Shown in pieces: positions 27,800 to 58,910 of a DNA stretch of 64,000 bases. A program made the translations under genes and the position numbers. Numbering within the stretch: position 1 is the stretch's first letter; the number at the start of each line of letters is the position of its first letter. A model generated the notes under the pieces. It was not told where the DNA came from. It saw nothing but the letters and a program-made list of their open reading frames with translations, and did no database searches. The stretch comes from PVC group bacterium (GTDB lineage: Bacteria > Verrucomicrobiota > Kiritimatiellia > CAIKKV01 > CAITUY01), in the NCBI GenBank assembly GCA_945870225.1, contig CAMBRF010000010.1, positions 20,880-84,879 on the forward strand, in the 5' to 3' direction.

Positions 27800-28924
27800 T
27801 TACTTCGTCTCGCGCGCCAGAATGTCAGCAACAATCGCGGCGGCGGCGTTGGGGCGGCCCATGCGCTTTGCCCGGTTCCCCATCTGATCCAGACGGTCAC
27901 GATCCTCCAACAGGGACTTGACCTTGAAATACGCATCTTCCACCTCAAACAACCGCGCGGCGGCCCCGGCCTCCAGAACTGTCTCGCAGTTCCGCTGCTC
28001 CTGACCGGGAATCGGATTGATCACCAGCATCGGACGGCCCTTGGCAAGAACCTCGGAGGTCGTCAGTCCGCCCGGCTTGGAGATCACCAGATCACAGGCA
28101 TCCATCATCACATGAATGTTGGAGACAAACCCGTGGACCACCACCGGGGTGCGGATGGTCGCCGCCAGCGCCTCGGCTTCCTGTTTCATCTTCTCGTTCG
28201 CGCCGGCAACCACAACCAGACGGCAAACGGGAGTCTCCTGCCCGAAGGCACGGATGAGATCCAGCGTCGGCCCCACGCCGAACCCTCCGCTTAATAGCAG
28301 CACAACCGGCAGATCGGACGGAAGACCAAGCGCCTTCATCGCGTCGGCTTTCGATTGCCCCTGCTGAAACACCGGATCAATCGGAATACCTGTCACCACC
28401 ACCCGGTCAGCCGGCTGCCCGCGCCGGACCAGATGCCGCCGGGCCTCCTCCATCGCCACATAGTAGGTGTCGGTATTCTCCAGGATCCAAAGGGAATGGA
28501 CGGCAAAGTCGGTGACCGCGCAATACACCCGGGCCTGCCGGCGCCGGCGCCGTGACGCGCGGGTCAGGAGTTGCAGCGGCATGAAATGCGTACAGACCGC
28601 AATATCCGGATCGAACTCCTTATAAAACTTCAGAAACGAAAGCGTGTTCATCTTGTTGAAAACGGCCCGGATTTCCTTTCTCCACGGAACATCCGCCTTG
28701 CGATCAGCCTCGGAATAGAGGTAGCCCCACAACTCCGGCGCCTTGCGGACCAGATCGAGATAGCCTTCCGAATACGTTTTCCTGAAAATCCCGGCAGTAT
28801 AGTCGAGGATATCGCAGACCTTGACCTCCGCCTCCGGCCGTGCCTGAAGAAACGCCTTGGCCAGGGCTTCCGCCGCCCGCCGATGTCCCGCACCCGCCGA
28901 GGCATGCAACAAGAGAATTTTCAT
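27800..28924 (-). CDS. MGDG-synthase/UgtP-like diacylglycerol glycosyltransferase (GT28)
   Basis: About 374 aa from ATG at 28924 (track ORF extends to 28960). N-terminal 'MKILLLHASAGAGHRRAAEAL' matches the MGDG_synth/UgtP signature. C-terminal GT-B domain 'VVLLLSGGFGVG...GRPMLVINPIPGQE'. Confidence 0.7.
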   Translation of the reverse strand: MKILLLHASAGAGHRRAAEALAKAFLQARPEAEVKVCDILDYTAGIFRKTYSEGYLDLVRKAPELWGYLYSEADRKADVPWRKEIRAVFNKMNTLSFLKFYKEFDPDIAVCTHFMPLQLLTRASRRRRRQARVYCAVTDFAVHSLWILENTDTYYVAMEEARRHLVRRGQPADRVVVTGIPIDPVFQQGQSKADAMKALGLPSDLPVVLLLSGGFGVGPTLDLIRAFGQETPVCRLVVVAGANEKMKQEAEALAATIRTPVVVHGFVSNIHVMMDACDLVISKPGGLTTSEVLAKGRPMLVINPIPGQEQRNCETVLEAGAAARLFEVEDAYFKVKSLLEDRDRLDQMGNRAKRMGRPNAAAAIVADILARETK

Positions 28925-29421
28925 GCCGTCTCCTTTTTCAGGGTGCTCCGATACGACCACCCGATCAGCACCACCCCGGCGGCAAGGGACAGGATATAAT
29001 CAACCGGAACACCCAGCATCCAATGCTTGTGCCAGGGAATAAACTCGGGCGCAAACTTCCCGAACCCGAAGGCGGGATTAAAAAGGAACCATAAAAAGTC
29101 CTCGATGATCCAGAACACCATCACCGACCCGATGATGCGGACCTCATGCCGCCAGGAGAACAGTCCGGTTATGAACAGCGGTAGGTGAAACACGAGCGCC
29201 ATGAAAGCAAATACCCAGACATGGTAGCCGGTAATGGTCTTCCCGCCCCAGAACAGGTTCAACCAGGAGTTGTCGAGCCGCCAGGTCGGAAGGTTGGCCG
29301 CCCACCCCGCTCCACCCTCAATCTGAATCTCCACCGTGGCGAACACCGCGCCCAACAAGGTCACCCACAACAACAGCAACGCCGCCTGAACCCCGGGCGC
29401 GATTTGACGCGCGCCGGTCAT
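28921..29421 (-). CDS. Hypothetical integral membrane protein (4 TM helices), translationally coupled to the glycosyltransferase
   Basis: About 166 aa from ATG at 29421 (track ORF extends to 29502, overlapping the upstream gene). Trp/Phe-rich TM segments. Stop overlaps the GT28 start (ATGA). No family recognised. Confidence 0.4.
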   Translation of the reverse strand: MTGARQIAPGVQAALLLLWVTLLGAVFATVEIQIEGGAGWAANLPTWRLDNSWLNLFWGGKTITGYHVWVFAFMALVFHLPLFITGLFSWRHEVRIIGSVMVFWIIEDFLWFLFNPAFGFGKFAPEFIPWHKHWMLGVPVDYILSLAAGVVLIGWSYRSTLKKETA

Positions 29422-31019
29422 ATCGCGGGCCCCGCCTCCGGCTTGACGTCGGGCTTGACGGTCACCTCGGCAGGGGCATGACCCTGTGTCACCACATGCC
29501 ATTTCGGGCGCCGCCAGCTCTTCCTGAACTCATCAAGGGATCCCTCGCTGGCGATCCTGGTCTTCTCCTGTCCGTCAAGGAACAGGACCAGATCATACTG
29601 CTGATCCGCCGTGCCATAGGTCGCGTCGAATTGATGAACCAACTCATTGGCCGGGGTGGCAGGCCGCCCAAGAATACTCAGGATTGGAAAGGTCAACCCG
29701 CGCGAGTCGGGACATACCTGATAGGACTTATACACCAACTCCGTACAGACAATGGCCGAGTCGGTCGTAAAATCAAAATTGTAATCATAGGGCCGCCCGA
29801 CATAGTGGAACGAGCGGAACAGCGCCACGGCCCGTTCTTTCTTGGTCAGGCGCGGACGTAGGGCGCACAGGCTGTCCGCCGCGCCGGAATGTTCCAGCGT
29901 GGTAAACAGGACCCCCTCCCCGATGGCTTCCAGGATGCGGGGGACATGACCCTCCTCCAGCACCGCCGTGCATTGCGCATAGGCCGCAGGGTATTTCGAT
30001 TTCAGCAGCGCGTCAAAGTCGCCGTCCTCCTGGCCCTGCGCCATGACCCAGGTCCGGGTGTCGGGATCGTTAAAAAACTCCTTACGATCCGCAGGGGTCC
30101 CCACATAGAGCACCGCATGGGGCCAGAAGCCCGGCAGACCGACATTCGACATGTACCATTCGCGACGCTCAAGCAGGACATCACCGGGAAGGAGTTTCTT
30201 GGCCGCCACGGCAAGTTGCTCCAGGGTAATAAGGCCTCCTTTCCAGCGCCACACCTTTGTATCGCCCATCCAGATCGAGACTCCTTTTTGGACGGGGAAC
30301 CAGGCCAGGCTGCCGCCCTTGCGCACCAACTCAAGCGCGTTATCGGCGGTCAGAAGCGAATCCTGGATGCGTCCCTTGGCGAGGACGGCGACATCCTGAT
30401 CAATGTTCACACTGCTCCGATCAGGTTTCTTGAACGTGGTCACCCAGATAGACTTGAAGGCCAGATATTCCGCCTTGCGCGCCACGTTGAGGACCAGGAA
30501 CTCAAACCGGCTGTAGGTCCCCTTTTCCAAACCGAGTTCCGGAACGGAATCGTTCAGCAGCACCTCCAGCCCGGGATCGTTCTCCACGAGTTTTACGAAA
30601 TCGAGCGAAAACCGGTATTGCGCCAGGAAAGCGGCGTAGGCGACAAGGAACGACTCGTCACGAACCTGACGGTCGACAATGAGAAAGGTTTTGCTGTGGG
30701 CACGCCGGACGGAATCCATGGCGATTGAGTAGTCGAGAAATGTCTTCCATGCGGTCCAGACTTCCTCACGTTGCTCCCGGGTCATCAGGCGGGCTTTCGT
30801 GGGCCGGCTCGTCGGGAACAAATCGGGCCGGGACTTCGCGAAACTAACGACCTGCTCCAGGCCGGCGCGATACTGCTGCACGGCCGCCATATCGGCCTTG
30901 ATCCGGGCGCGCCGGTCATCCGCAGGCTCCTCGGCTCCCCTCACCACTCCAACCAGGAGCGAACCCCACACCAGCGCCACGCCAACAACCCGTCCCAGCC
31001 CGGTCCGTTTCCTGATCAT
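29418..31019 (-). CDS. Secreted YiiX/YaeF-type permuted-papain-fold (NlpC/P60 superfamily, C92-like) protein
   Basis: 533 aa. Signal peptide. C-terminal 'HYVGRPYDYNFDFTTDSAIVCTELVYKSY' matches the YiiX signature (catalytic Cys in a 'C(S/T)ELV' context after a 'YDxxFDF' block). The long N-terminal region has no recognisable family. Confidence 0.5.
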   Translation of the reverse strand: MIRKRTGLGRVVGVALVWGSLLVGVVRGAEEPADDRRARIKADMAAVQQYRAGLEQVVSFAKSRPDLFPTSRPTKARLMTREQREEVWTAWKTFLDYSIAMDSVRRAHSKTFLIVDRQVRDESFLVAYAAFLAQYRFSLDFVKLVENDPGLEVLLNDSVPELGLEKGTYSRFEFLVLNVARKAEYLAFKSIWVTTFKKPDRSSVNIDQDVAVLAKGRIQDSLLTADNALELVRKGGSLAWFPVQKGVSIWMGDTKVWRWKGGLITLEQLAVAAKKLLPGDVLLERREWYMSNVGLPGFWPHAVLYVGTPADRKEFFNDPDTRTWVMAQGQEDGDFDALLKSKYPAAYAQCTAVLEEGHVPRILEAIGEGVLFTTLEHSGAADSLCALRPRLTKKERAVALFRSFHYVGRPYDYNFDFTTDSAIVCTELVYKSYQVCPDSRGLTFPILSILGRPATPANELVHQFDATYGTADQQYDLVLFLDGQEKTRIASEGSLDEFRKSWRRPKWHVVTQGHAPAEVTVKPDVKPEAGPAI

Positions 31020-31225
31020 CGATATCTCCTATGAGTTTGTTCCATCAAACATGTGCAAGGCATCGACGTCACCATTTTGGGAGGGACGGCGTGTCGCCGT
31101 CCGCGGCGCGCAACATGCGCGCCCTCCCTTAGGTCCCGGACAACAACCCAACCAGGACCCCCTGTTAACAACGAGCCGTTACCGCCTGAATCGTGACGGC
31201 AACGGCTCGTTTACTTCCGATCATC

Positions 31226-47835: not shown

Positions 47836-50800
47836 CTACTCGATCCCGACGTCCACAACGCCTTCACCGTCGGACCCTTCGTCCTGTTTATCCTTTTTTT
47901 CGACCGGGAGCATCCCCATGAAGGTCACCGAGGCCCCCTGTCCAAGAGCCTCATCGGCCTTGCAAAATGTTTCAGCAGCCGTCGCGAACTGTTCCTGCTG
48001 GCTTTCCAGGTGGCGCTCCATGAAATCCAATCGATCTCCCAGATTATCGTCGTCTTCAGCCGACACACTCGCGACCGTCCCCGTCGTCACCGGGGCCGGA
48101 AGATCGACAACCCACATGCCGTTTCCATAGCTTCCGCTATTCATGAGCGTACCCATGACCATGCCTTTGCGTTTCGCGTTCTTGCCGAGCATGGACATAT
48201 AACCGGAGCGGCCATTCATGCGCTGCATCGCCGCATCCATCACGGTAACCTCGAGCCGTAAGCCCTTACCCAGTCCGCCGGAGGAAAGTGTGACAACGAA
48301 TGCCTTTCCGGCCTTCAGTTGCCGCGTGCATAGCTCCCGCATCTCTGCGATCACATTCGTGGAGACCGTGGTGCCCGTCAGTTTTTTGATCCGGTCCACC
48401 TCTGCCGCAGACAGCTCGGGGGCCGTTTTGACCGACTCGATAATCCGGGCCATCGGGGCCAGGGCCTTTGTGATGGCCTCGTTTTCGGCGGCCGCCGCCA
48501 TCAGATACAGATTCTCCGCGTCGGTCAACTTATCGAGGACGGCCCCCAGTGCCGCGGGGGAGGCCTTTATGATGGCCGCGTCAATCACCTTGCGCCGCTC
48601 AGCCGTCACATCATCTGCATCTGGCAATTTCGGCAACTGATCCTCCGTTATTCCGGCCAGTCGGGCGGCGGCACGGTCCCGTGAATATTTCATCATCACA
48701 TCTGGCCGGAGATAGGCCCCCCGGCGCCCATATGACTCCATGCGGGACGTATCCCCGTAGAGAGCTTCGATTCCCGAGGCGGCTATGTCGGCAACGGTCA
48801 TGGCATAGGCCCCGCCGGAATACATTCTTCCATTCGGCATCCCCCGTGTGTCCGCCAGTAGGATCTTCCATTCGGCGGCGTTGGTGGCGATATTCAACTT
48901 GTTCTTGTCGGAGAATTTCTTCATCGCCGCCTGCATGGATTCCGGACTCTGATCCTCCCCGTTTGCCATGCTTTCCTGCATTTGCGCCTCCATGCCTGCA
49001 TAGCGCAACATCGGCAGCATCTGGAGAATCCGGACCCGAGCCATGACATTGGTTGTCTTCACCGCCGCCGCAAGGAGGGCCGGCACGGCTTGGGCGGCTG
49101 GCTGTCGACCCAGCGCGGAATAGGCCATGCCCCCATCATTTTCATCACCGGCGCTGGCGAGGCTGGCCACAAGCTCCGTCAGGTCCTGCTTCTTGACCAT
49201 GGCGCGCAAGGCTTTGATTTCATTATCGGCCTGCTTTTTGAGCATCTTCTCATATTCGGCGTTATCCGCCATACCGGCCGGCAACTCAACCTTCTGGCGG
49301 ATGGCCACATACTTCTCGACAAATTCCGCAGCTTTCTCGCCCCGTTTCTGAACGTACTGCTGCGCCAGCCCGCTCCCCATCATCCATCTTCCCTGGCCTT
49401 CCATCCCCTCCGCCGGGGGCGTCAGCAGGAACGCCTCAATGGCGGGCGCGTTGGATTCAATATCATCCTGGAGCATGTAACCGATGGCGATCTGCTGCTG
49501 CTGCTGATCCCCATTTTTCAGGAAGTACGGGGCGAGGGCGGACGGAGGCAGGTCCTTCAGAAGGGCATACACCTGCTTGGCCGACTCGATCACCTCTTCG
49601 GGAGAGCCCCCGGCCTCATTGAAGGGTGAATTTTCCCCGCGCTTCATCAAGGGGGCCAGCAGAGTGCGGGCAATTTCGCCGCGGGTCACGGGGCGGTCCA
49701 TCTGGTTGAAGTACAGCAACGCCCTCTCTGACTCGGGCTTCTGGGCCATATTGCCTGAACCGGAGTAGTAGACAGACATGCCGAGGTCGGCACGTCGCAG
49801 AGGACAAAGCGTCTCGTCGGGAACCAGCGCGATCAGCAGCGGTATCGATTTGACCCCGCGCGCCATGATACGGCCAATAACGCTCTCATTCTTCATCCCC
49901 CGCATGGTCTTGGCGGGTGGGAAAATCCACAATCCGCCGTGCCCCATATACATTCCGCTTCCGACCTGATTAGTCTCCGAGGCCAGGTCAGCGGCCAATT
50001 GCAAATCCTCCCCGCTCAGCCCCTCACCCGTAAGGGCCGGGGCTTCCGTCATGGCCACCCGCGCCTGCAGGTGATCGGCCAGCAACTTGACCGCGCCCGC
50101 CTTGCGCCAGCCGGCTGGATACTTCTTCAACAGCCCGGTGATGGAGATTTGATAGGCCTTCCAATCCCCCGTCTTCCGGAACGCATCCAGCGTCGCCGCC
50201 AACTGTGAGTCCGCCACAACATTCAAGGCCCCGACAATGACTTTCCGCGAATCGCCGACCAGCGTGAAAAGACGGCCGACCAGGGCGTTCGCCTCCTGGG
50301 TTTTCCCATTCTGCCAAGCCGTCGCGGCCAGCAGGAAGAGCGCACCCGCCGGCTCATCCGACTGTAGAAAGGCGTCGTACCGCATCTCGCGGGCACCTGA
50401 GGACTTGGCCTTGATCTTCTTGTCCAGAAGAGCCGTCGCCCGGGCAAGATCGCGGGATAGATCGACCGGAGTCCAGTTGCCGGCCTCAGCCATGGCCTGG
50501 CCGCAATTCCTCCTGACTCCACCCATGACTTTTACCACGCCCTTCGTGGATGTCGCGGTCTGGGTCACAGCATTGCTCCGCGCCTCTTCCATCATTTTTT
50601 TCGTGGCCGTCTTCTGATCAAACAGTTCCAGCGTCCTGCCGGAAGAGGTAACCAGAACACTTCGATCTTCTTTGTTTTCGGAAATCAGCCAGGCATTGCC
50701 AGAGATTTGGAATTCCTGAAGACGATGCATCGTCATGTCCTGGAAACCACCGCCATAGTAGTCGAGCTTGACGTACCGGGCCTTCGATGTATCCGGCACC

Positions 50801-50991
50801 CCCATGCTCATGAACGTACGGAATCCCTGACTGTAGTCCTGCACATTCGTCGAGACACTGACCGGGGGCGTAGCTGAAGACTTTTCCTGAAGTGTGACGG
50901 CGTCAGGCGGAGGGACAATGGCCGGAGCGGCCTGCGCCACGACAGCAGCGCCAAACAGGATCCCCGCGGCGGCAATAACACCCGTATTCAT
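47836..50991 (-). CDS. Large secreted hypothetical protein (first gene of the Bat/MoxR-type operon)
   Basis: About 1050 aa from ATG at 50991 (track ORF extends to 51018). Signal peptide 'MNTGVIAAAGILFGAAVVAQA'. Ala/Lys/Glu-rich, largely helical. No enzyme motifs recognised. Confidence 0.45.
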   Translation of the reverse strand: MNTGVIAAAGILFGAAVVAQAAPAIVPPPDAVTLQEKSSATPPVSVSTNVQDYSQGFRTFMSMGVPDTSKARYVKLDYYGGGFQDMTMHRLQEFQISGNAWLISENKEDRSVLVTSSGRTLELFDQKTATKKMMEEARSNAVTQTATSTKGVVKVMGGVRRNCGQAMAEAGNWTPVDLSRDLARATALLDKKIKAKSSGAREMRYDAFLQSDEPAGALFLLAATAWQNGKTQEANALVGRLFTLVGDSRKVIVGALNVVADSQLAATLDAFRKTGDWKAYQISITGLLKKYPAGWRKAGAVKLLADHLQARVAMTEAPALTGEGLSGEDLQLAADLASETNQVGSGMYMGHGGLWIFPPAKTMRGMKNESVIGRIMARGVKSIPLLIALVPDETLCPLRRADLGMSVYYSGSGNMAQKPESERALLYFNQMDRPVTRGEIARTLLAPLMKRGENSPFNEAGGSPEEVIESAKQVYALLKDLPPSALAPYFLKNGDQQQQQIAIGYMLQDDIESNAPAIEAFLLTPPAEGMEGQGRWMMGSGLAQQYVQKRGEKAAEFVEKYVAIRQKVELPAGMADNAEYEKMLKKQADNEIKALRAMVKKQDLTELVASLASAGDENDGGMAYSALGRQPAAQAVPALLAAAVKTTNVMARVRILQMLPMLRYAGMEAQMQESMANGEDQSPESMQAAMKKFSDKNKLNIATNAAEWKILLADTRGMPNGRMYSGGAYAMTVADIAASGIEALYGDTSRMESYGRRGAYLRPDVMMKYSRDRAAARLAGITEDQLPKLPDADDVTAERRKVIDAAIIKASPAALGAVLDKLTDAENLYLMAAAAENEAITKALAPMARIIESVKTAPELSAAEVDRIKKLTGTTVSTNVIAEMRELCTRQLKAGKAFVVTLSSGGLGKGLRLEVTVMDAAMQRMNGRSGYMSMLGKNAKRKGMVMGTLMNSGSYGNGMWVVDLPAPVTTGTVASVSAEDDDNLGDRLDFMERHLESQQEQFATAAETFCKADEALGQGASVTFMGMLPVEKKDKQDEGSDGEGVVDVGIE

Positions 50992-51323
50992 TATACATCC
51001 GAACACATTACGACTCATCAGGCTTCTCCTTTTTCACCGGTTAACGACATTTGGCAGCATTCCAGAAAACATATGCCGAAGCTGATCAGGCGGCAGTCGG
51101 ACAGGGAGTTCTTGAAGGAAGAACGTAGATTATCATGCGGTGGTGATGTCACCATGAGGGGAACATTGCTTTTTCCAGATGCAATACGCAATAAGAAAAA
51201 ATGGAAGAAGTCGAGGAGCCTCGCCTGGTCTTTTCACTCTCATCAGGATGAAGGGTGTCCGCAAAAAGACCCGACCGGTTTTTATCCAGCCATTCGTTTA
51301 TTCCGTGAACAAGTCCGACCCTT

Positions 51324-52595
51324 TCAGGTCGTTTTGGCCGGAACCGTGACATCGCGGCCGCGCCAGGCGAACCAGAGGGTTCCCAGCACGCCGAAAACGA
51401 ACGCCACCTTGAGGTTGAGTTCCGGCGACACGCGCCAGAGCAGGGCCCCGCCAAAAGCGGCAAAGGCGACCAGCACGTCGCGAACGAGATAATACAGACC
51501 GAACATCGCCGCCTTGCGGCCCTCCGGCGCCAGGTCCATGATCAGGGCCTTGCGCGTCGGTTCGCCAAATTCCTTCAGCCCGCGCAGCACAAAGGCGGCC
51601 ACCAAGGGTCCGAGGGATTGCGAGTGCAACAGCGCCAACGGGAAGCAGCTGAAGAACCCGAAGGTGATCAGCACGAAAGGCTTTTTCCCGAAGCGGTCGG
51701 CCATGTAGGCAACCGGGATGTACACCAGCACCGCCGTGATGTTCTCAAGGGCGGAAAGCCATCCAAAGGTGAGTTCGGACACCGGATGCATCACATAGCG
51801 CGTGGCCCAGATGACCACAAACGCATCCGGAATACGCTCGCAGAAGCGAATCAGGATATCCGACCAGAGCAGATTCCGCAGACCGGGCGGCATCTCGCGC
51901 CACAACCGCAGTGGGCTGGCCTCGGGAACCCGGGCATCCTTGGAATCATCCGTGATCAGCCGCTGTTGCAATACACAGGCGGCCAGGGCCAGCGCCAGGG
52001 CCAGGATGAACGCCGCGCGGACGCCCGCCTCAACACCCCAGACCGCGATGCACGCGCCACCCACGACCGGCCCCAGCATCTTGGGTACGCGCCGGACCAG
52101 CGCCAATACCGATACCCCCATCGTGCGCCGGTTCTTCGGCACAACCTTGGCCAGCAGATCCATCGTGGCCGGCAGCGAAATGGCCGACCAGGAGATGAAA
52201 AAGGCTGCGCCAATCAGCACGGACCACCACGACCTAATGAGGATGACACACAGGTACCCGACCATCGAGAGGGCGTTAAAGAACAGCAGCGCCTTTTTCG
52301 TGCCCAGCCGGTCGCTCAGATAGCCGCCAGGGAAGGAGTAGAGCGCGGACAACAGATCGTCCATGCCCGCCAGCAGGCCAATGGCCATGACCGCCGTCGA
52401 GGCTTGCGCCAACTGCTGCAGGTAGAGCGGCAGAAAGCGCTCGGCCATATGCTCACCCATGCCCACCAGCACGATCATGCCGAGCAAACCAACCATACTG
52501 CGCCTTCCACGAAGCAAGGCCTGCATACGGTCCTGAATAGAAGGGACAGGGTCAGACGGCATGGGTGCCCTCAGCTTGGAGATACTGTCGCCCAT
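51324..52595 (-). CDS. MFS transporter
   Basis: 423 aa. 12 predicted TM helices. MFS loop motif 'GGYLSDRLGTKK' between TM2 and TM3. Confidence 0.8.
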   Translation of the reverse strand: MGDSISKLRAPMPSDPVPSIQDRMQALLRGRRSMVGLLGMIVLVGMGEHMAERFLPLYLQQLAQASTAVMAIGLLAGMDDLLSALYSFPGGYLSDRLGTKKALLFFNALSMVGYLCVILIRSWWSVLIGAAFFISWSAISLPATMDLLAKVVPKNRRTMGVSVLALVRRVPKMLGPVVGGACIAVWGVEAGVRAAFILALALALAACVLQQRLITDDSKDARVPEASPLRLWREMPPGLRNLLWSDILIRFCERIPDAFVVIWATRYVMHPVSELTFGWLSALENITAVLVYIPVAYMADRFGKKPFVLITFGFFSCFPLALLHSQSLGPLVAAFVLRGLKEFGEPTRKALIMDLAPEGRKAAMFGLYYLVRDVLVAFAAFGGALLWRVSPELNLKVAFVFGVLGTLWFAWRGRDVTVPAKTT

Positions 52596-52980
52596 AAGAA
52601 AGACCTTTTAGGATCATTCCGTAGCAGAATCCAAATTGCCATCAACCCGAATTCGAGAACAAGGACAAGTTACAGCCACACGAAAACGGGTTCAACCCTT
52701 CTTACCGACTCCAGGAAATATACGCGAGGGCAAGCAGCCTGTTGCCCCCCGGCTCAGCCGGAGGCTTCGCCCAACCTTGGGAAAACCCAGTGGTTTTGCA
52801 GGGCGAGGCGTTTCGCCGAGCCGCCTTGAAGCAAATGCATTGATTTTCATAGGGCCTCTTGACGGTACGGCTTGACCGGCAAGTCTTCGAATTATAGCAT
52901 GTTGATAGTAGTGCCACTGCTCGCAAGCCAGGGTTATGGCTTCAAATTAGGTGGCAGTCAAAACAGGGGGAGGAATCGCA

Positions 52981-54159
52981 ATGTCGGAGAATAGTTTCAC
53001 AGAGTCGGAGAATAGTTTCACAGAAGTCACAAACCAGTCGTGGTTCAGTCGTATCGGGGACTCCATCAAGGGGATTCTGGGTGGCCTTGCCATGGTTGCT
53101 GTCGCCTTCTTTCTGCTTTTCTGGAACGAGGGTCGGGCTGTCAAACAGTACAAGACCCTGAAGGAAGGCGGCAAAACGGTTATCTCAGTCAGCGCCGACA
53201 GTGTTGATGCCGCCAATGCGGGAAAGTTGCTCCATGTGACCGGCAGAGCCGTTACGGACGCCACGCTGACAGATCCCGTCTTCGGCGTATCGGCGAATGC
53301 GCTGAGGCTGAAGCGCGTCGTCACCATGTACCAGTGGAAGGAGACCTCCAAAAGCGACACCAAGGAGAAGCTTGGCGGAGGCACGGAGACGACCAAGACC
53401 TATTCGTACAGCAAGGTTTGGTCTGATAGAGTCATCTCTTCTTCGGAATTCAAGGTGCAGGCAGATCATCAGAACCCCACATCGCTCCCTTATGAGCCAT
53501 CGGAACAAATCGCGGCCGTGGTGACGTTCGGGGCTTTTACCCTGTCGCCGTCATTAGTCTACAGGATCAACAACTTTGAACCCCTTCCCGTAAGCAACGA
53601 TGTGTCCCTGCCGGAATCCCTCAAAAACAAAGTCAAACGGAACGACAGTGGGTTCTACATTGGTTCCGATCCATCCTCCTCGCAGATCGGGGATGCACGT
53701 ATCAGTTTCATGGTCGCTAAACCGACGGAAGTAAGCGTGATTGCCGCACAGGTGGGGAAAACTTTTGAACCCTACCGAACCAAGACGAGCGGAAACATTG
53801 AGCTTCTGCAAACGGGCGTTCATTCGGCTGAGGCCATGATCCAGCAAGCACAGGAAAACAACCGGAACTTGACCTGGATCCTCAGGCTAGTCGGATTCAT
53901 CCTGATGCTCAGCGGACTGAATATGATGCTCAGACCGCTTTCCGTCCTGGCGAGTGTGGTGCCGATTCTGGGCACGATCGTGGGGGCCGGGTTGGGGCTC
54001 GTGGCCTTTCTGCTGGCCGCCCTCCTGTCACTGGTCACAATTGCCATCGCCTGGATTGTCTACCGCCCGCTCTTGGGAATTGTCCTGATTATTATTGCGG
54101 TGAGCCTTGCTCTGGTTATCAAGGGGAAGCTCAAGTCCGCCAAAGTCGAAAAGGCGTAA
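52981..54159 (+). CDS. TMEM43/LUMA-family (DUF1625) membrane protein
   Basis: About 392 aa from ATG at 52981, 6 nt after GGAGG (track ORF begins at 52951). 'WFSRIGDSIKGILGGL...LLFWNEGRAV' N-terminal TM/motif. Long extracytoplasmic beta-rich region. Three C-terminal TM helices. Pattern matches TMEM43-like proteins. Family call is from memory. Confidence 0.55.
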   Translation: MSENSFTESENSFTEVTNQSWFSRIGDSIKGILGGLAMVAVAFFLLFWNEGRAVKQYKTLKEGGKTVISVSADSVDAANAGKLLHVTGRAVTDATLTDPVFGVSANALRLKRVVTMYQWKETSKSDTKEKLGGGTETTKTYSYSKVWSDRVISSSEFKVQADHQNPTSLPYEPSEQIAAVVTFGAFTLSPSLVYRINNFEPLPVSNDVSLPESLKNKVKRNDSGFYIGSDPSSSQIGDARISFMVAKPTEVSVIAAQVGKTFEPYRTKTSGNIELLQTGVHSAEAMIQQAQENNRNLTWILRLVGFILMLSGLNMMLRPLSVLASVVPILGTIVGAGLGLVAFLLAALLSLVTIAIAWIVYRPLLGIVLIIIAVSLALVIKGKLKSAKVEKA

Positions 54160-54204
54160 CCGCCCACAACAAACCGCGCCCCGCTGGACCCAAAAGGCAA
54201 CAGG

Positions 54205-54473
54205 GCGCGTCGGTTCGCCAAATTCCTTCAGCCCGCGCAGCACAAAGGCGGCCACCAAGGGTCTGAGGGATTGCGAGTGCAACAGCGCCAACGGGAAGCA
54301 GCTGAAGGACCCGTCGACATGTAGGCAACCGGGATGAACACGCGCACCGCCGTGATGTTCTCAAGGGCGGAAAGCCATCCAAAGGTGAGTTCGGACACCG
54401 GATGCATCACATAGCGCGTGGCCCAGATGACCACAAACGCATCCGGAATACGCTCGCAGAAGCGAATCAGGAT
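54205..54473 (-). pseudogene. Degraded internal fragment (about 100 codons) of an MFS transporter gene. It is a direct repeat of 51553..51857.
   Basis: About 269 nt, roughly 95% identical to the internal region of the MFS gene 51324..52595 (encoding '...FGEPTR ... VIWATRYVMHPVSELTFGWLSALENITAV...'). Carries a 43-nt internal deletion and several substitutions. No start codon. Frames broken. Confidence 0.6.
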
Positions 54474-54506
54474 GCCCGCATGCGGCTCCAGACGGAGGGC
54501 TCCGGG

Positions 54507-55922
54507 TCAGGCAACACGGGCTCCCTCATGAATGGAACTACCGCTGTGGATCACCCTGATGTTGAGAATCGCACACAGGTTTTTCAACACAGCTCGGTTG
54601 TCACCGTAGGACAGGATGTAATGCTGACTCATGACCTCCTGAATGAAATCCTCCACCGGCGTGTCAAAAATCAACTCCAGGCTCGGGAGTTGCGGAGCAG
54701 GCGGAGCCCAGCCGGCTTCTTCCCACTTGGCCGGAGTCCGGGCCTCCGCCAACGCGAGGTGCAAGCAGTAGGCTCCGGCGGCATACCCCAGCCGGGCCAG
54801 CGTGACCTGACCGGTTTTCAGCTTGGAGACGTTCAGTAACCCCTCACCGAAATTCCCGAAGGCGTTCGGCATGACGGTGATTTTTCCGTCAACGATCTCA
54901 GAGGGAACATAATCGGGGACCCCCATCAGCGCGCCGTTTTCCAGAAACTCATAGAACTCAAGGTAGGCACCGACCTGTCCGGTCAAATAGCGGATCATGA
55001 GCTGGGTGACCGCACCCAGGCTGTCGTTCTCAGGAACCGTGGACAGATCCATTTCGTCATGCAACAGGGTCATCGCACCCGCCGGCGCAAAGCCGAGCAG
55101 TTTCTTGATCCCGTCAACGTCGTTAAACGAAAACCCCTGATATCCCCGTTCCTTGATTTTGCCGCTGATCGCCAGGTAGAGTTCTACCGACTTCTCCACC
55201 GTACCAGCCTTCGGTTCCTTGACAAACGTCCAGCGTTTCCGGACGTCTTTAGCCAGACGTGACACCTCGCGGGGGTCCACTTTCCCGATCATCTGGGCCA
55301 GTTCCAGAAGTTCGAAATGCTCAATTTCAGGACCGATTTGCGTCTTCAGCGAGATCCCGTCGTACATCGTACCGTAGAGGCGCATGTCGCGATACCCGCC
55401 CATGCCGATCCGGGCGGTCTTCAGCAGCGCCGCAGCCCGGGCCGCCCGGGCATAGCTCACGATCTCATCGACTTTAGGCTTCTGCCCTCGATAGGTGACC
55501 ACATATTTGAAGGTGTAGCCCATGTCGGCCATCGGCTTGCGCAGGGCTGTGGTGCCCGCCTGGTCGGCCGTGGTAACGAACCTGTCGCCCTCGCGCCAAC
55601 CGGTCAGGCCCCAAAGCAGGATCGGCTTATGCTTGAACGGCTCGATCACCGAAATAACCGCCCAGGACGGAATCCAGCCAGCCACGCAGACAATGACTAG
55701 GTCCAGATCCCCGCCCGCCTTCAGTTCCCGGACGGCCCGGGCCGCCTGCTCGCCTGCGGGATCGTCGCTGACCGGCGCGGTCACCACCAGTTCCATTCCC
55801 TGTTTCTCCAGCAAGCGGCTGGCGTCAGCACAACGCTTGTCGATGAATTCCCGCGGGGTATTGACTTCCCCAAACCCCACGAACCCTGCCCGGATCTTTC
55901 GTATTTCGCCCATGACCCTCAC
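54507..55922 (-). CDS. L-arabinose/L-fucose isomerase-family protein
   Basis: 471 aa (alternative ATG at 55913). N-terminal Rossmann-like 'IRAGFVGFGEVNTPREF...' region. C-terminal isomerase barrel. Overall length and order resemble the AraA/FucI superfamily. Call by pattern only. Confidence 0.5.
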   Translation of the reverse strand: MRVMGEIRKIRAGFVGFGEVNTPREFIDKRCADASRLLEKQGMELVVTAPVSDDPAGEQAARAVRELKAGGDLDLVIVCVAGWIPSWAVISVIEPFKHKPILLWGLTGWREGDRFVTTADQAGTTALRKPMADMGYTFKYVVTYRGQKPKVDEIVSYARAARAAALLKTARIGMGGYRDMRLYGTMYDGISLKTQIGPEIEHFELLELAQMIGKVDPREVSRLAKDVRKRWTFVKEPKAGTVEKSVELYLAISGKIKERGYQGFSFNDVDGIKKLLGFAPAGAMTLLHDEMDLSTVPENDSLGAVTQLMIRYLTGQVGAYLEFYEFLENGALMGVPDYVPSEIVDGKITVMPNAFGNFGEGLLNVSKLKTGQVTLARLGYAAGAYCLHLALAEARTPAKWEEAGWAPPAPQLPSLELIFDTPVEDFIQEVMSQHYILSYGDNRAVLKNLCAILNIRVIHSGSSIHEGARVA

Positions 55923-55930
55923 TCCTGTTT

Positions 55931-57388
55931 TTAAAATAATCTTCGATTCAAGTCCCGGTATTGCCGGAAGGCGGCATTGTAGACGTCGCGGTTATCCGGG
56001 TTCGGGGAAATCGTCACCGTCGACCGAACCATGGCCTTCGTGGCTTCCCCGATGCCAGGGAAAAGTCCCGTGCCCACCGCGGAAAGGATGGCCGTCCCCA
56101 GGCTGGTGGTCTCTTCACAGCGCATCACCGTGATACTCCTCTGGAGGATATCCGCCTTGATCTGGAGCCAGAGCGGGCTGCGGGCCGCCCCACCCAGCGA
56201 CGTCACCTCCCGGCAATGGATGCCGGATTCGTCGAGCAACTCCACATTGTCCCGCAATGCAAAAGCCACCGATTCCAAAACCGCGCGGATAAAATGCGCT
56301 TTCCGGTGCGCCGTGGTGATCCCGTAGAAAACACCCTTCGCCTCCGGATTGATATCCGGCGAATTCATACCGCTGAAATGCGGCAGCAGAATCAACCCCT
56401 CACTACCTGGCGGAATGGCGGCGGCGGCAGCCGACAGCGCGGCATAATCGAGACCCTCGCCAAACTCATCACGAAACCAGCGCAGGATCATACCGGCGGT
56501 TGGAATCCACGGCAGCAGCACGAACAGGCCGGGAACGGCATGCCGGTAAAGCCCAATGCGCATTTTGGGATCGTAAACAGGATGCTCGACCGTCGCGCAA
56601 ACCGCCAGCGCGCAGCCGGTGGTTTCCGTTACCATGCCCGGCGCAATATTGCCCGCCCCCACCGCCGCCGCTACCTGATCGATGGGCGCCACCGTCACCC
56701 TCGTCTTCTGGCTCAAGCCCATCTCCGCGACAACCGTCCCGGCAACCTCACCGGAGTTCAACAAAAGAGGCAATTGCCCGGTCGAAATACCGAGAAACCG
56801 CAGCATCTCGTCCCACCATCCGCCCCGGCAAAGGTCATAATAGAGCGTGGAAGGATTCAGGGCATGATCCGTGGCGAACGTTCCGGTCAGGCGATAGATC
56901 AAATAGTCTTCCACCATGAGAAATTTTGAAGCGGCTTTGAAAACAGCCGGCTCATGTTGGCGCAGCCAGAGAATTTTCGCCGCCGGCCAGCCCGGAACGA
57001 TATCCTGCTGCCCGGTCACCTGATAGACCCGTTCACGTCCAAATTCCTGCCTGATAAGATCCGCCTCGGCTTTGGCCCGGTTATCGAGCCAGACAATGGC
57101 TTTGCGAAGCGGTTTTCCGTTCCGGTCGAGAACGATCAGCGTCTCCCCCTGACTGGTGACGCCCAGTGCCGTGATGCTTTCCGGCTGGACGGCAGTCTCT
57201 TTCAAGATCTCCGCGATGACAGTCCTGGCGGCTTCCCAGTAAACTTCCGGATCGAGTTCGACAACATCCGGGGCCGGATTGTCCAGGGAGTATTCATGAA
57301 CGCGCGAACACAACAGACCGCCCGAAAGGTCAAACAGTGCCCCTTTCAGGGAGGTGGTTCCTGCATCCAGTGTCAAAACCAGGCTCAT
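55931..57388 (-). CDS. FGGY-family carbohydrate kinase (xylulokinase-like)
   Basis: 485 aa. 'LTLDAGTTSLKGALFD' N-terminal phosphate-1 motif. 'GGGARSPLWLQIKADIL' FGGY C-terminal signature. Confidence 0.85.
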   Translation of the reverse strand: MSLVLTLDAGTTSLKGALFDLSGGLLCSRVHEYSLDNPAPDVVELDPEVYWEAARTVIAEILKETAVQPESITALGVTSQGETLIVLDRNGKPLRKAIVWLDNRAKAEADLIRQEFGRERVYQVTGQQDIVPGWPAAKILWLRQHEPAVFKAASKFLMVEDYLIYRLTGTFATDHALNPSTLYYDLCRGGWWDEMLRFLGISTGQLPLLLNSGEVAGTVVAEMGLSQKTRVTVAPIDQVAAAVGAGNIAPGMVTETTGCALAVCATVEHPVYDPKMRIGLYRHAVPGLFVLLPWIPTAGMILRWFRDEFGEGLDYAALSAAAAAIPPGSEGLILLPHFSGMNSPDINPEAKGVFYGITTAHRKAHFIRAVLESVAFALRDNVELLDESGIHCREVTSLGGAARSPLWLQIKADILQRSITVMRCEETTSLGTAILSAVGTGLFPGIGEATKAMVRSTVTISPNPDNRDVYNAAFRQYRDLNRRLF

Positions 57389-57389
57389 A

Positions 57390-58829
57390 TTATTTCCACT
57401 GCTCGCTGATGGCGCCCACGGTTATATCCACGAGCTTCCTGCCACCTTCTGATCCGACATTTCCGTTGATGATCAGCCCACCGTAGCCGCCGAGCTGTTC
57501 CGCGCGGAGGCTGGGTAAATAGCCGCCCGTCCCGGCGCAGAGCTGGACGACAAACGTCTGCTCCGCCGCGCTCCGCGCCTTGATCTGATGGCCGAATTCC
57601 AGATAAAGCTCGAAGGGACTCGTTACGAACACGATCCGGCCGAGTCGCAGAATATGCATTTCCAGATCAAAATCCGGCTGTGCATTCTGGCTTTCATAGC
57701 GAGCCACCGCCGCCCGGTTGTTCTGAATCAGCACAAAATGATGAAGCTTGCTGTCATACGGGCCCGGGCGTCCGGTAATGTTTTCATTCCGGCTGACGTC
57801 CTCGCAGAACTGACGGTATGCCTGATCTTCAGTCAGAACGGCTTCCAGTTCGGTCAGCTTCTTTTGGGCTTCAATATAGTCCTGATAGGAGGCCCGGCGG
57901 CGCGGCAACGAGACGGTCTTGACGTCATGGCGCAGTACAGGGGCGAAATCAATCTTCGCAGACGCCACCAGACAGGCTTTTTCCACTGTCTCCGCAAGCC
58001 TTTTCCCGAGCTCCCCCACTCCGCTTGCATGCCAGAAATCCGGTTCACCCTTGTAATTCCGGATCAAATCACGGGGCGACTGACAGCCGGCGGCACTGAT
58101 TTGACCCAAAGTCCGGAACTCCTCCCCGAAACACTGCTTGAGCCGTTGCCGGGTTTCGCCGATGAAGTCGGACGAAATCTTATAGGCAGCCTCCATCACC
58201 TGTGACGGGCAGGCGAGGTTGAGAATGACGCCCGTCGGTTTCCGCGCTTCGTCAAAGGCAAACAGCAGATCAACCCCGGAATCCTCCCCGCCCTCCATAC
58301 CGACGAAATCCTCGCGGTCGGTGCGCCCGTACATCTCCGCGGTGCCATCGGAATAAACGGCGCGCCGGCAATGCCCAACCCGGGCAAACCCCAGGGCGTT
58401 GCCGATGCCACCGGGACGACGGTTCCGCCAGGCCTCAGCCGCTGCGAAAGCAACTTTGGCCAGCATAAATTCGCGGTATTCCGCCGCAGGCAGAACCCCG
58501 GGCAATTCCGCAAGCCAACCGATTCCACAGATCCGATCAACACCGGGTGCGTTATGCGTGTGCGTCACATTCAGGAAGACCTTCAAGGACTCCAGTTCAG
58601 GCAGTTCCGCGCGGAGCCTCGCCCGCAACTCATCCTGAAAATCGGATTGGAACCCCACCAGTTCCAGGGAAACCATGACAACCTGCTCTCCCGCATCAGA
58701 CTCCATCGCCAGGGCCGTTGCCGTGAGCCGTGAATGCACACCGTCGGAAACGCGATGATAATACTGTCCGGAAAGATCAACCTTTCCTGCCGGTGTTGTA
58801 TCGACTTCAGACCAGCCTATCCGAATCAT
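57390..58829 (-). CDS. Hypothetical protein with neutral/alkaline-ceramidase-like N-terminal region
   Basis: About 480 aa from ATG at 58829 (GGGAGA RBS; track ORF extends to a TTG at 58865). 'IRIGWSEVDTTP...G' opening and His-rich 'NVTHTHNAPG' motif resemble the ceramidase/DUF-type metal-binding N-domain. Weak. Confidence 0.4.
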   Translation of the reverse strand: MIRIGWSEVDTTPAGKVDLSGQYYHRVSDGVHSRLTATALAMESDAGEQVVMVSLELVGFQSDFQDELRARLRAELPELESLKVFLNVTHTHNAPGVDRICGIGWLAELPGVLPAAEYREFMLAKVAFAAAEAWRNRRPGGIGNALGFARVGHCRRAVYSDGTAEMYGRTDREDFVGMEGGEDSGVDLLFAFDEARKPTGVILNLACPSQVMEAAYKISSDFIGETRQRLKQCFGEEFRTLGQISAAGCQSPRDLIRNYKGEPDFWHASGVGELGKRLAETVEKACLVASAKIDFAPVLRHDVKTVSLPRRRASYQDYIEAQKKLTELEAVLTEDQAYRQFCEDVSRNENITGRPGPYDSKLHHFVLIQNNRAAVARYESQNAQPDFDLEMHILRLGRIVFVTSPFELYLEFGHQIKARSAAEQTFVVQLCAGTGGYLPSLRAEQLGGYGGLIINGNVGSEGGRKLVDITVGAISEQWK

Positions 58830-58910
58830 ATTTTTATCTCCCTGAGTGCCGACCAGAATACACAAAATCGTATAGTTGCGCAGCGGATTCTACAGTCACC
58901 CCTATGAATA

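Follow-up and report, generated by a model that had tools for sequence, protein, structure and literature searches.

A direct repeat flanks the gene of a TMEM43-family protein in a stretch of 64,000 nt (the window, meaning that whole stretch at its full length) from an uncultured PVC group bacterium of the Kiritimatiellia (GenBank assembly GCA_945870225.1, contig CAMBRF010000010.1, positions 20,880 to 84,879 of the forward strand). The left copy of the repeat (copy A) lies inside an intact MFS transporter gene (MFS1) and the right copy (copy B) is very probably the non-functional relic of a once complete second MFS gene (MFS2), which would have stood convergent with TMEM43 and immediately downstream of a sugar-isomerase-like gene (ISO). 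A first reading of this DNA (the original prediction) had suggested that the MFS gene was duplicated and that its second copy then decayed, and this is borne out in that the corresponding slot in relatives holds a convergent MFS gene, the ends of the gene are kept at copy B and the changes between the copies are derived in copy B. The same reading requires correction as to which copy was displaced, with the decayed copy standing at the position that the gene occupies in relatives and the intact copy at a new one. The features that carry this conclusion are the following (window coordinates).

51324..52526, minus strand: intact MFS transporter gene MFS1, the surviving copy (Pfam MFS_1).
51552..51858, minus strand: repeat copy A, codons 246-348 of the intact MFS gene (repeat finder, BLASTN, MAFFT).
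52981..54159, plus strand: TMEM43-family gene, 392 aa, between the repeat copies (Pfam TMEM43).
54160..54204, no strand: first 45 nt of the putative ancestral 55-nt spacer between the TMEM43 and MFS stop codons (43/45 positions match relatives).
54205..54474, minus strand: repeat copy B, putative internal relic of MFS2, codons 246-348 with a net 37-nt frame-breaking deletion at 54314-54317.
54474..54506, minus strand: putative relic 5′ end of MFS2, the start codon and five bases followed by the 25-nt upstream spacer.

The repeat finder, BLASTN and MAFFT all match copy A (51552-51858) to copy B (54205-54474) in direct orientation. Two direct, collinear blocks were returned by the repeat finder, 51552-51660 against 54205-54313 at 98% and 51702-51862 against 54318-54478 at 97%. 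Self-comparison by BLASTN, with 51000-55000 searched against the whole window, reproduced the predicted same-orientation repeat of an internal MFS fragment as one gapped match (51552-51857 with 54205-54473, 86% including the gap, E = 8.5e-108) and found no third copy in the 64 kb. The end of the repeat was set at 51858 and 54474 because the last four to five positions of the second block match at 3/5 only, with 51859-51862 and 54475-54478 assigned to the flank. The position first given for the repeat therefore stands with bounds revised to 51552-51858 and 54205-54474, and the identity of approximately 95% gives way to 97-98% within the aligned blocks. In the MAFFT alignment copy B has 4 nt (54314-54317) where copy A has 41 (51661-51701), which makes the net loss 37 nt in place of the 43-nt deletion first described; the broken frame holds, since 37 is not a multiple of three. 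Copy A comprises nt 738-1044 (aa 246-348) of a 423-codon MFS open reading frame (ORF; 51324-52595, minus strand), and at copy B codons 246-348 are all that remains of the internal gene body, with only short broken ORFs present. Pfam agrees with the original gene assignments, MFS1 matching PF07690 (MFS_1) at E = 1e-34 (120 bits against a cut-off of 33, with no NCBIfam subfamily reaching its cut-off) and TMEM43 matching PF07787 at E = 5e-84 over its full length (profile positions 1-250 of 250).

Relatives of the locus were found through the TMEM43 protein cluster at at least 90%, which contains the window protein and four others on contigs from four samples (JGI samples 3300044990, 3300044991 and 3300059473, and run SRR21524769). 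The DNA of three contigs (L136, L137 and L138) was compared, with the fourth (P0001) known from gene calls alone. On all four contigs a gene on the opposite strand begins 55 nt past the TMEM43 stop codon, convergent with TMEM43. In L137 the gene in this slot encodes a complete 390-aa MFS protein, in L136 and L138 the slot holds the 3′ end of an MFS gene, and in P0001 it holds a 356-aa gene call whose identity as MFS is unconfirmed. The comparison with related genomes that had been proposed as a check thus finds TMEM43 present with a convergent downstream gene, and a full-length MFS gene on L137. By BLASTN the MFS gene from window 51324 onwards is 88-91% identical to those of the relatives; MFS1 and the L137 protein share 98.2% of their amino acids at 91% nucleotide identity, with 85 of the 105 nucleotide differences at third codon positions. 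Wider scans covered GTDB species genomes with the isomerase (55 loci, ≤87% aa identity, the best genome matches being metagenome-assembled genomes (MAGs) labelled Kiritimatiellia, Verrucomicrobiota and Lentisphaerota) and metagenomes with the MFS protein (80 loci, 63-91% aa). No MFS or TMEM43 gene was found near the isomerase in the 55 loci, and the 80 MFS orthologue loci showed no conserved neighbours, no TMEM43, no isomerase and no second MFS fragment. As the window has no neighbours in common with these loci, synteny tells nothing at such a distance. A chimeric protein query aimed at the neighbours of P0001 returned only homologues of a 1060-aa protein encoded elsewhere in the window (see below).

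The junctions of copy B fall close to both native ends of the gene. On the left, window 54160-54216 aligns with the relatives' spacer and MFS stop codon before switching to MFS nt 1044, with the junction lying within GCGCG(T)CGG(T)TC, a motif common to the spacer/stop region and to nt 1033-1044 of the coding sequence, approximately 10 nt short of the place of the relatives' MFS stop (spacer position 55). On the right, the minus strand from 54481 down to 54474 reads ATGCGGGC, identical to L137 through the MFS start codon and the five bases beyond it. Beyond ATGCGGGC lie a 25-nt spacer and a stop codon, a geometry that is the same upstream of MFS1 and of the L137 MFS gene, with the 54474-54506 region 79% identical to L137 and 70% identical to the region upstream of MFS1. 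In BLASTN this match takes in L137 2014-2076 and window 54474-54536. The start codon and 25-nt spacer kept at copy B point to a complete gene that would have been reduced by three deletions.

The substitutions point in the same direction. Of 266 aligned sites, 29 separate copy A from L137, and copy B carries the copy A state at all 29, such that the two copies are closer to each other than to the L137 orthologue, as in paralogues under concerted evolution. Six changes are private to copy B and none to copy A, and comparison with 25 MFS orthologues from metagenome contigs places the orthologue state in A and the derived state in B wherever the two differ. The private changes are mostly at codon positions 1 and 2, as are all five for which the orthologues are unanimous, in what is a small sample. 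Because copy B follows copy A at 29/29 sites and has six changes of its own, it would descend from the MFS gene of the window's own lineage and would then have evolved without constraint. Homology to the MFS gene, a destroyed frame, an intact gene at the slot in relatives and derived changes, all marks of a gene relic, thus occur together at copy B. With no Rfam match at E ≤ 1 in 50500-55000, a predicted RNA fold of the TMEM43-isomerase spacer no more stable than that of shuffled sequences (z = -0.4) and broken ORFs only, nothing suggests a function for the putative relic.

The age of the duplication has to be read separately from the likeness of the two coding sequences. Over approximately 70-80 nt upstream of the MFS start, identity is 78% between MFS1 and L137, 79% between the copy B flank and L137, and 70% between MFS1 and the copy B flank, against 97% in the coding patch. 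The flank identities match those of other non-coding comparisons between the window and its relatives (72-79%), so the two window loci would date back to about the time of the split from the relatives and the duplication itself is probably not recent. As the 97% patch and the 29 shared variants contrast with flanks at approximately 70%, we infer that gene conversion kept the coding sequences alike until shortly before MFS2 decayed.

Taken in order, the lineage would at one stage have had a full-length MFS gene on either side of TMEM43, the two in direct orientation. MFS1, upstream of TMEM43, would have stayed functional, with the downstream copy redundant. MFS2 would then have lost its 3′ 228 nt at a short GC-rich microhomology, approximately 660 nt at its 5′ end with the start codon and five bases spared, and a net 37 nt internally, while gaining six unconstrained substitutions, and the 270-nt internal fragment that was left would be what is now seen as the direct repeat.

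The new position of MFS1 can be placed by reference to the relatives, in which a C92-peptidase-like gene (equivalent to window 28787-31128 at 90% by BLASTN) lies to the left of TMEM43, the two being separated by a spacer whose length, approximately 350-440 nt, varies with the start called for TMEM43. Pieces of this spacer are found in the window at 31020-31128 (79%), at 51136-51200 (72%) and in the promoter and 5′ untranslated region at 52872-52980. Two extra blocks lie between these pieces, a 20-kb operon on the minus strand (31129-51135) and a 1.67-kb block (51201-52871) made up of a terminator-like hairpin, MFS1 and approximately 345 nt of MFS upstream sequence. The gene order C92-like, TMEM43, MFS of the relatives thus corresponds to MFS, TMEM43, MFS relic in the window, with no inversion. 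MFS1 and its upstream region of approximately 345 nt would have arrived as the 1.67-kb block in the spacer on the promoter side of TMEM43, whether a TMEM43-MFS unit was duplicated in tandem and one TMEM43 then lost or the block came in by copy-insertion. The features on either side of MFS1 and beyond copy B are the following.

51201..51323, minus strand: stretch downstream of MFS1 that contains a terminator-like hairpin at 51272-51292 (terminator scan).
52527..52712, minus strand: native upstream region of MFS1, collinear with its counterpart at the L137 MFS gene.
52872..52900, plus strand: promoter-like site TTGACC-17-TAGCAT upstream of the TMEM43-family gene (promoter scan).
54507..55922, minus strand: sugar-isomerase-like gene ISO (Pfam AraA_central, Fucose_iso_C).

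Upstream of MFS1 the layout is a 25-nt spacer, a TGA stop codon (52552-52554), a relic, now frameshifted, of the final codons of an ORF upstream, and then non-coding sequence. BLASTN matches L137 819-2208 to window 51324-52712, the L137 contig reaching no farther, and the upstream region is 74-78% identical to that of L137, with no match in the other 135 loci. That this upstream sequence, in MFS1 and L137 alike, is a decayed isomerase gene was considered and rejected beyond the first approximately 65 nt, the DNA comparison giving z of 1.9-2.6 and the single raised protein-frame score (z = 3.8) having been obtained with the terminal 9-codon motif included. Downstream, alignments found no homology between 51201-51323 and the relatives' 55-nt TMEM43-MFS spacer (shuffle z 0.6-1.0), and so homology with the relatives breaks at the MFS1 stop codon. 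The MFS reading frame of the ORF list extends to 52595, and its first 23 codons (52527-52595) overlap the frameshifted relic. The short upstream ORF overlapped by these codons ends ...SIHEG..VA in L137, and the gene calls for the relatives' MFS genes begin at the counterpart of Met34. Codons 1-23 of the 423-codon ORF are probably non-coding, with the likely start of MFS1 at Met24 (52526) or Met34 (52496).

Several points weigh against this history of duplication, conversion and decay. No relative with two intact MFS copies was found among those examined, the two-copy stage being reconstructed, and no relic of a lost first TMEM43 or of the 55-nt spacer is detectable to the left of MFS1, such that the tandem-duplication route is unproven. 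Similarity outside the coding patch is 70% in the upstream flank against 97% within it, with approximately 660 nt between patch and flank deleted in copy B, and no border of a conversion tract is visible because the borders coincide with deletion junctions. The old age of the flanks is read from approximately 70-80 aligned nt only. Finally, the arrangement is seen in a single assembly, with exact-protein searches using the MFS, isomerase, kinase and 1060-aa proteins finding no independent contig with the same junctions.

The TMEM43 gene itself has a history of its own, which bears on the first alternative. The segment 52997-54216 differs from L136 and L138 at 31 of 1220 nt (97.5%, BLASTN), and L137, which covers the 3′ 820 nt of it (53397-54216), is 97.4% identical. 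Around this segment the flanking genes on the same contigs are 88-91% identical and the non-coding flanks 72-79%, and 15 of the 27 coding differences between TMEM43 and the relatives are at codon positions 1 or 2. An identity of 97.5% against 72-91% around it indicates a recent exchange of TMEM43 alone by recombination between two lineages. Upstream, the sigma70-like promoter TTGACC-17-TAGCAT predicted at 52872-52900 was located by the promoter scan, and the relatives keep both hexamers and the 17-nt spacing (TTGACG-17-TAGCAT in the alignment with L136 and L138) in surrounding sequence that has diverged, the region 52872-52980 showing local similarity to the relatives at z = 4.9.

The original prediction had offered, as a second possibility, an insertion event that delivered the TMEM43-like gene. 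Taken as Campbell-type or homology-facilitated integration, this would mean that DNA of a related lineage carrying TMEM43 next to MFS sequence recombined into a resident MFS gene and duplicated the region of homology on either side of the insert. The order MFS, upstream region, TMEM43, spacer and MFS relic is what a single crossover with a circle would produce, the TMEM43 segment is closer to the relatives than its flanks are, and the relative-like tract runs up to the left junction of copy B within GC-rich microhomology, as would fit homology-facilitated illegitimate recombination. However, the segment between the repeats is not uniformly donor-like, with the 5′ half of MFS1 at 91%, its upstream region at 74-78% and the promoter and 5′ untranslated region barely aligning, and copy B carries the variants of the window lineage at 29/29 sites. 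The adjacency of TMEM43 and MFS and the promoter hexamers are common to the relatives, and TMEM43 was therefore already present. Nor does composition speak for delivery from outside. The codon-usage check first suggested for TMEM43 gives a low GC (0.544) with an ordinary GC at third codon positions (GC3) of 0.687 (0.69 when rounded) in a window averaging 0.725 +/- 0.037, and as GC3 is normal despite the low GC a foreign origin by composition is unsupported. Plain allelic replacement of TMEM43 would explain the 97.5% tract without making a repeat. Integration is on this evidence unlikely; it is possible that one homology-facilitated illegitimate event both replaced TMEM43 and removed the 3′ end of MFS2.

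A second alternative is that a piece of approximately 310 nt of the MFS gene was copied into the TMEM43-isomerase spacer by break repair or template switching, with no full gene ever present there. A source in the same orientation at a distance of 2.6 kb, a left junction with short microhomology and the contrast between 97% identity and diverged flanks are all in keeping with such a templated patch. A copy taken from the middle of the gene would, however, neither bring nor meet both native gene ends, and here the left junction stops just short of the place of the relatives' MFS stop and the right junction abuts the MFS start codon and its 25-nt spacer. The relatives moreover have a convergent MFS gene in this very slot, full-length on L137, and the patch is very unlikely.

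An assembly artefact, in the form of a chimeric or mis-joined metagenome contig, would suit a window that comes from a metagenome-derived contig and an arrangement absent from any second assembly found. It is harder to reconcile with a copy B that is not identical to copy A, has six substitutions of its own and a 37-nt deletion, and is bounded by two unique junctions that would each need reads. The flanks of copy B are coherent with the loci of the relatives, and the window-lineage variants occur in copy B as they do in copy A, which places both sides of TMEM43 in the same lineage; an artefact is scarcely credible.

The terminator scan found no terminator-like site between TMEM43 and the isomerase gene, and transcripts from both sides may as a result enter the relic. 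From this absence solely, a reading can be drawn in which the relic has been put to use, with the TMEM43 transcript carrying 3′-terminally approximately 270 nt that are 97% complementary to the mRNA of the intact MFS gene and coupling the expression of these two divergently arranged genes by antisense pairing, and with the transcript of the isomerase operon ending in a sense decoy. Such a role can be given almost no weight. Insertion of a mobile element with target-site duplication or att repeats was rejected, no recombinase, transposase or terminal inverted repeats having been found. As the original prediction had stated, there is no integrase or insertion sequence at the locus, Pfam finding no integrase or transposase domain at or beside it and the repeat finder no inverted repeats of at least 20 nt in 49000-57000. 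Between the repeats Pfam finds MFS_1 and TMEM43 only, and the neighbours are sugar-metabolism and Bat/MoxR-type genes.

On the isomerase side of copy B, the last 13 codons of ISO (HSGSSIHEGARVA, window 54507-54548) overrun the usual end of approximately 40 orthologues, most of which stop after ...NIxVI, and read into sequence homologous to the MFS upstream region. As the HSGSSIHEGARVA extension lies in MFS-upstream-like sequence, the 3′ end of ISO would have been remodelled by the same rearrangements. ISO is one of three genes on the minus strand at 54507-58865, encoding a ceramidase-like protein, an FGGY sugar kinase and the isomerase. The isomerase has weak AraA and fucose-isomerase domains, with sub-threshold NCBIfam matches to sulfoquinovose isomerase and L-arabinose isomerase. 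In many PVC-group MAGs the ceramidase-like gene is again found with the isomerase gene, whether or not the kinase is present.

The 20-kb operon between the pieces of the C92-TMEM43 spacer splits two genes that adjoin in the relatives, with breakpoints approximately 110-130 nt upstream of the start of the C92-like gene. It encodes a Band7/SPFH protein, a 1539-aa protein with HEAT and thioredoxin domains, a DUF4159 protein, a VWA protein, BatA, a DUF58 protein and a MoxR AAA ATPase, together with the 1060-aa protein, which has no Pfam match. A 65-nt element ending CGCAATAAGAAAAA occurs at window 51136-51200 and at L136 2360-2424 with 72% identity. The CGCAATAAGAAAAA element occupies the stretch 118-182 nt upstream of the gene for the 1060-aa protein in the window, and the stretch 127-191 nt upstream of the C92-like gene in the relatives; the two may have in common a promoter or leader that has come to serve another first gene. 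At the 5′ end of the TMEM43 gene the window has a 21-nt tandem duplication (52976-53017) such that SENSFTE occurs twice, with a single SENSFTE unit in the close relatives and a TMEM43 protein of 385 aa there against 392 aa in the window. The MFS1 protein is unusually conserved, with more than 7000 database proteins at E ≤ 1e-100; among the matches listed, the cluster representatives share 84-92% identity with it, the MAGs of their origin being labelled Kiritimatiellia, Verrucomicrobiia, Latescibacterota and Armatimonadetes.

Seen against known systems, the repeat shares with the repeats left by mobile elements at target or attachment sites the property that direct repeats flank a gene. It differs from them in being 270-310 nt of internal coding sequence without terminal inverted repeats, transposase or integrase, and in that the flanked TMEM43 is at its native place in the relatives. 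The tandem-duplication-random-loss model of gene-order change is best known from animal mitochondrial genomes. The passage here from TMEM43-MFS to MFS-TMEM43 order with no inversion, and with an MFS relic at the old place, is similar to it; the differences are that no relic of a lost TMEM43 was found and that the order is accounted for just as well by copy-insertion of the MFS block.

That bacterial pseudogenes are removed fast by deletion is established (PMC6054270; PMC2916853). Copy B resembles such pseudogene relics in that a redundant gene would have been shortened by several deletions with loss of frame, substitutions are gained regardless of codon position and a fragment persists in an intergenic spacer. 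It differs in that the functional paralogue is just 2.6 kb away, because of which the relic shows as a direct repeat, and in that the relic marks the position held in relatives with the working copy at a new one. Likewise, gene conversion between bacterial paralogues is established (PMC5485169; PMC6053082), and concerted evolution of the tufA/tufB type is similar in its combination of 97% identity between the coding sequences, approximately 89-91% to the orthologue of the relative and approximately 70% in the flanks. In the present case one copy would be dead and conversion is read from a single 270-nt patch.

As an outcome of duplication, decay by deletion and, probably, gene conversion, the feature is ordinary and of little significance beyond this genome other than as a clean example of a change in gene order through a two-copy intermediate followed by loss, in which a relic can mark the former position of a gene. 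For annotation, copy B should be given as a pseudogene fragment rather than as small ORFs and the start of MFS1 moved to Met24 or Met34. For the genome itself, the direct repeat spaced at 2.6 kb is a potential site for errors of assembly and for deletion of TMEM43 by recombination.

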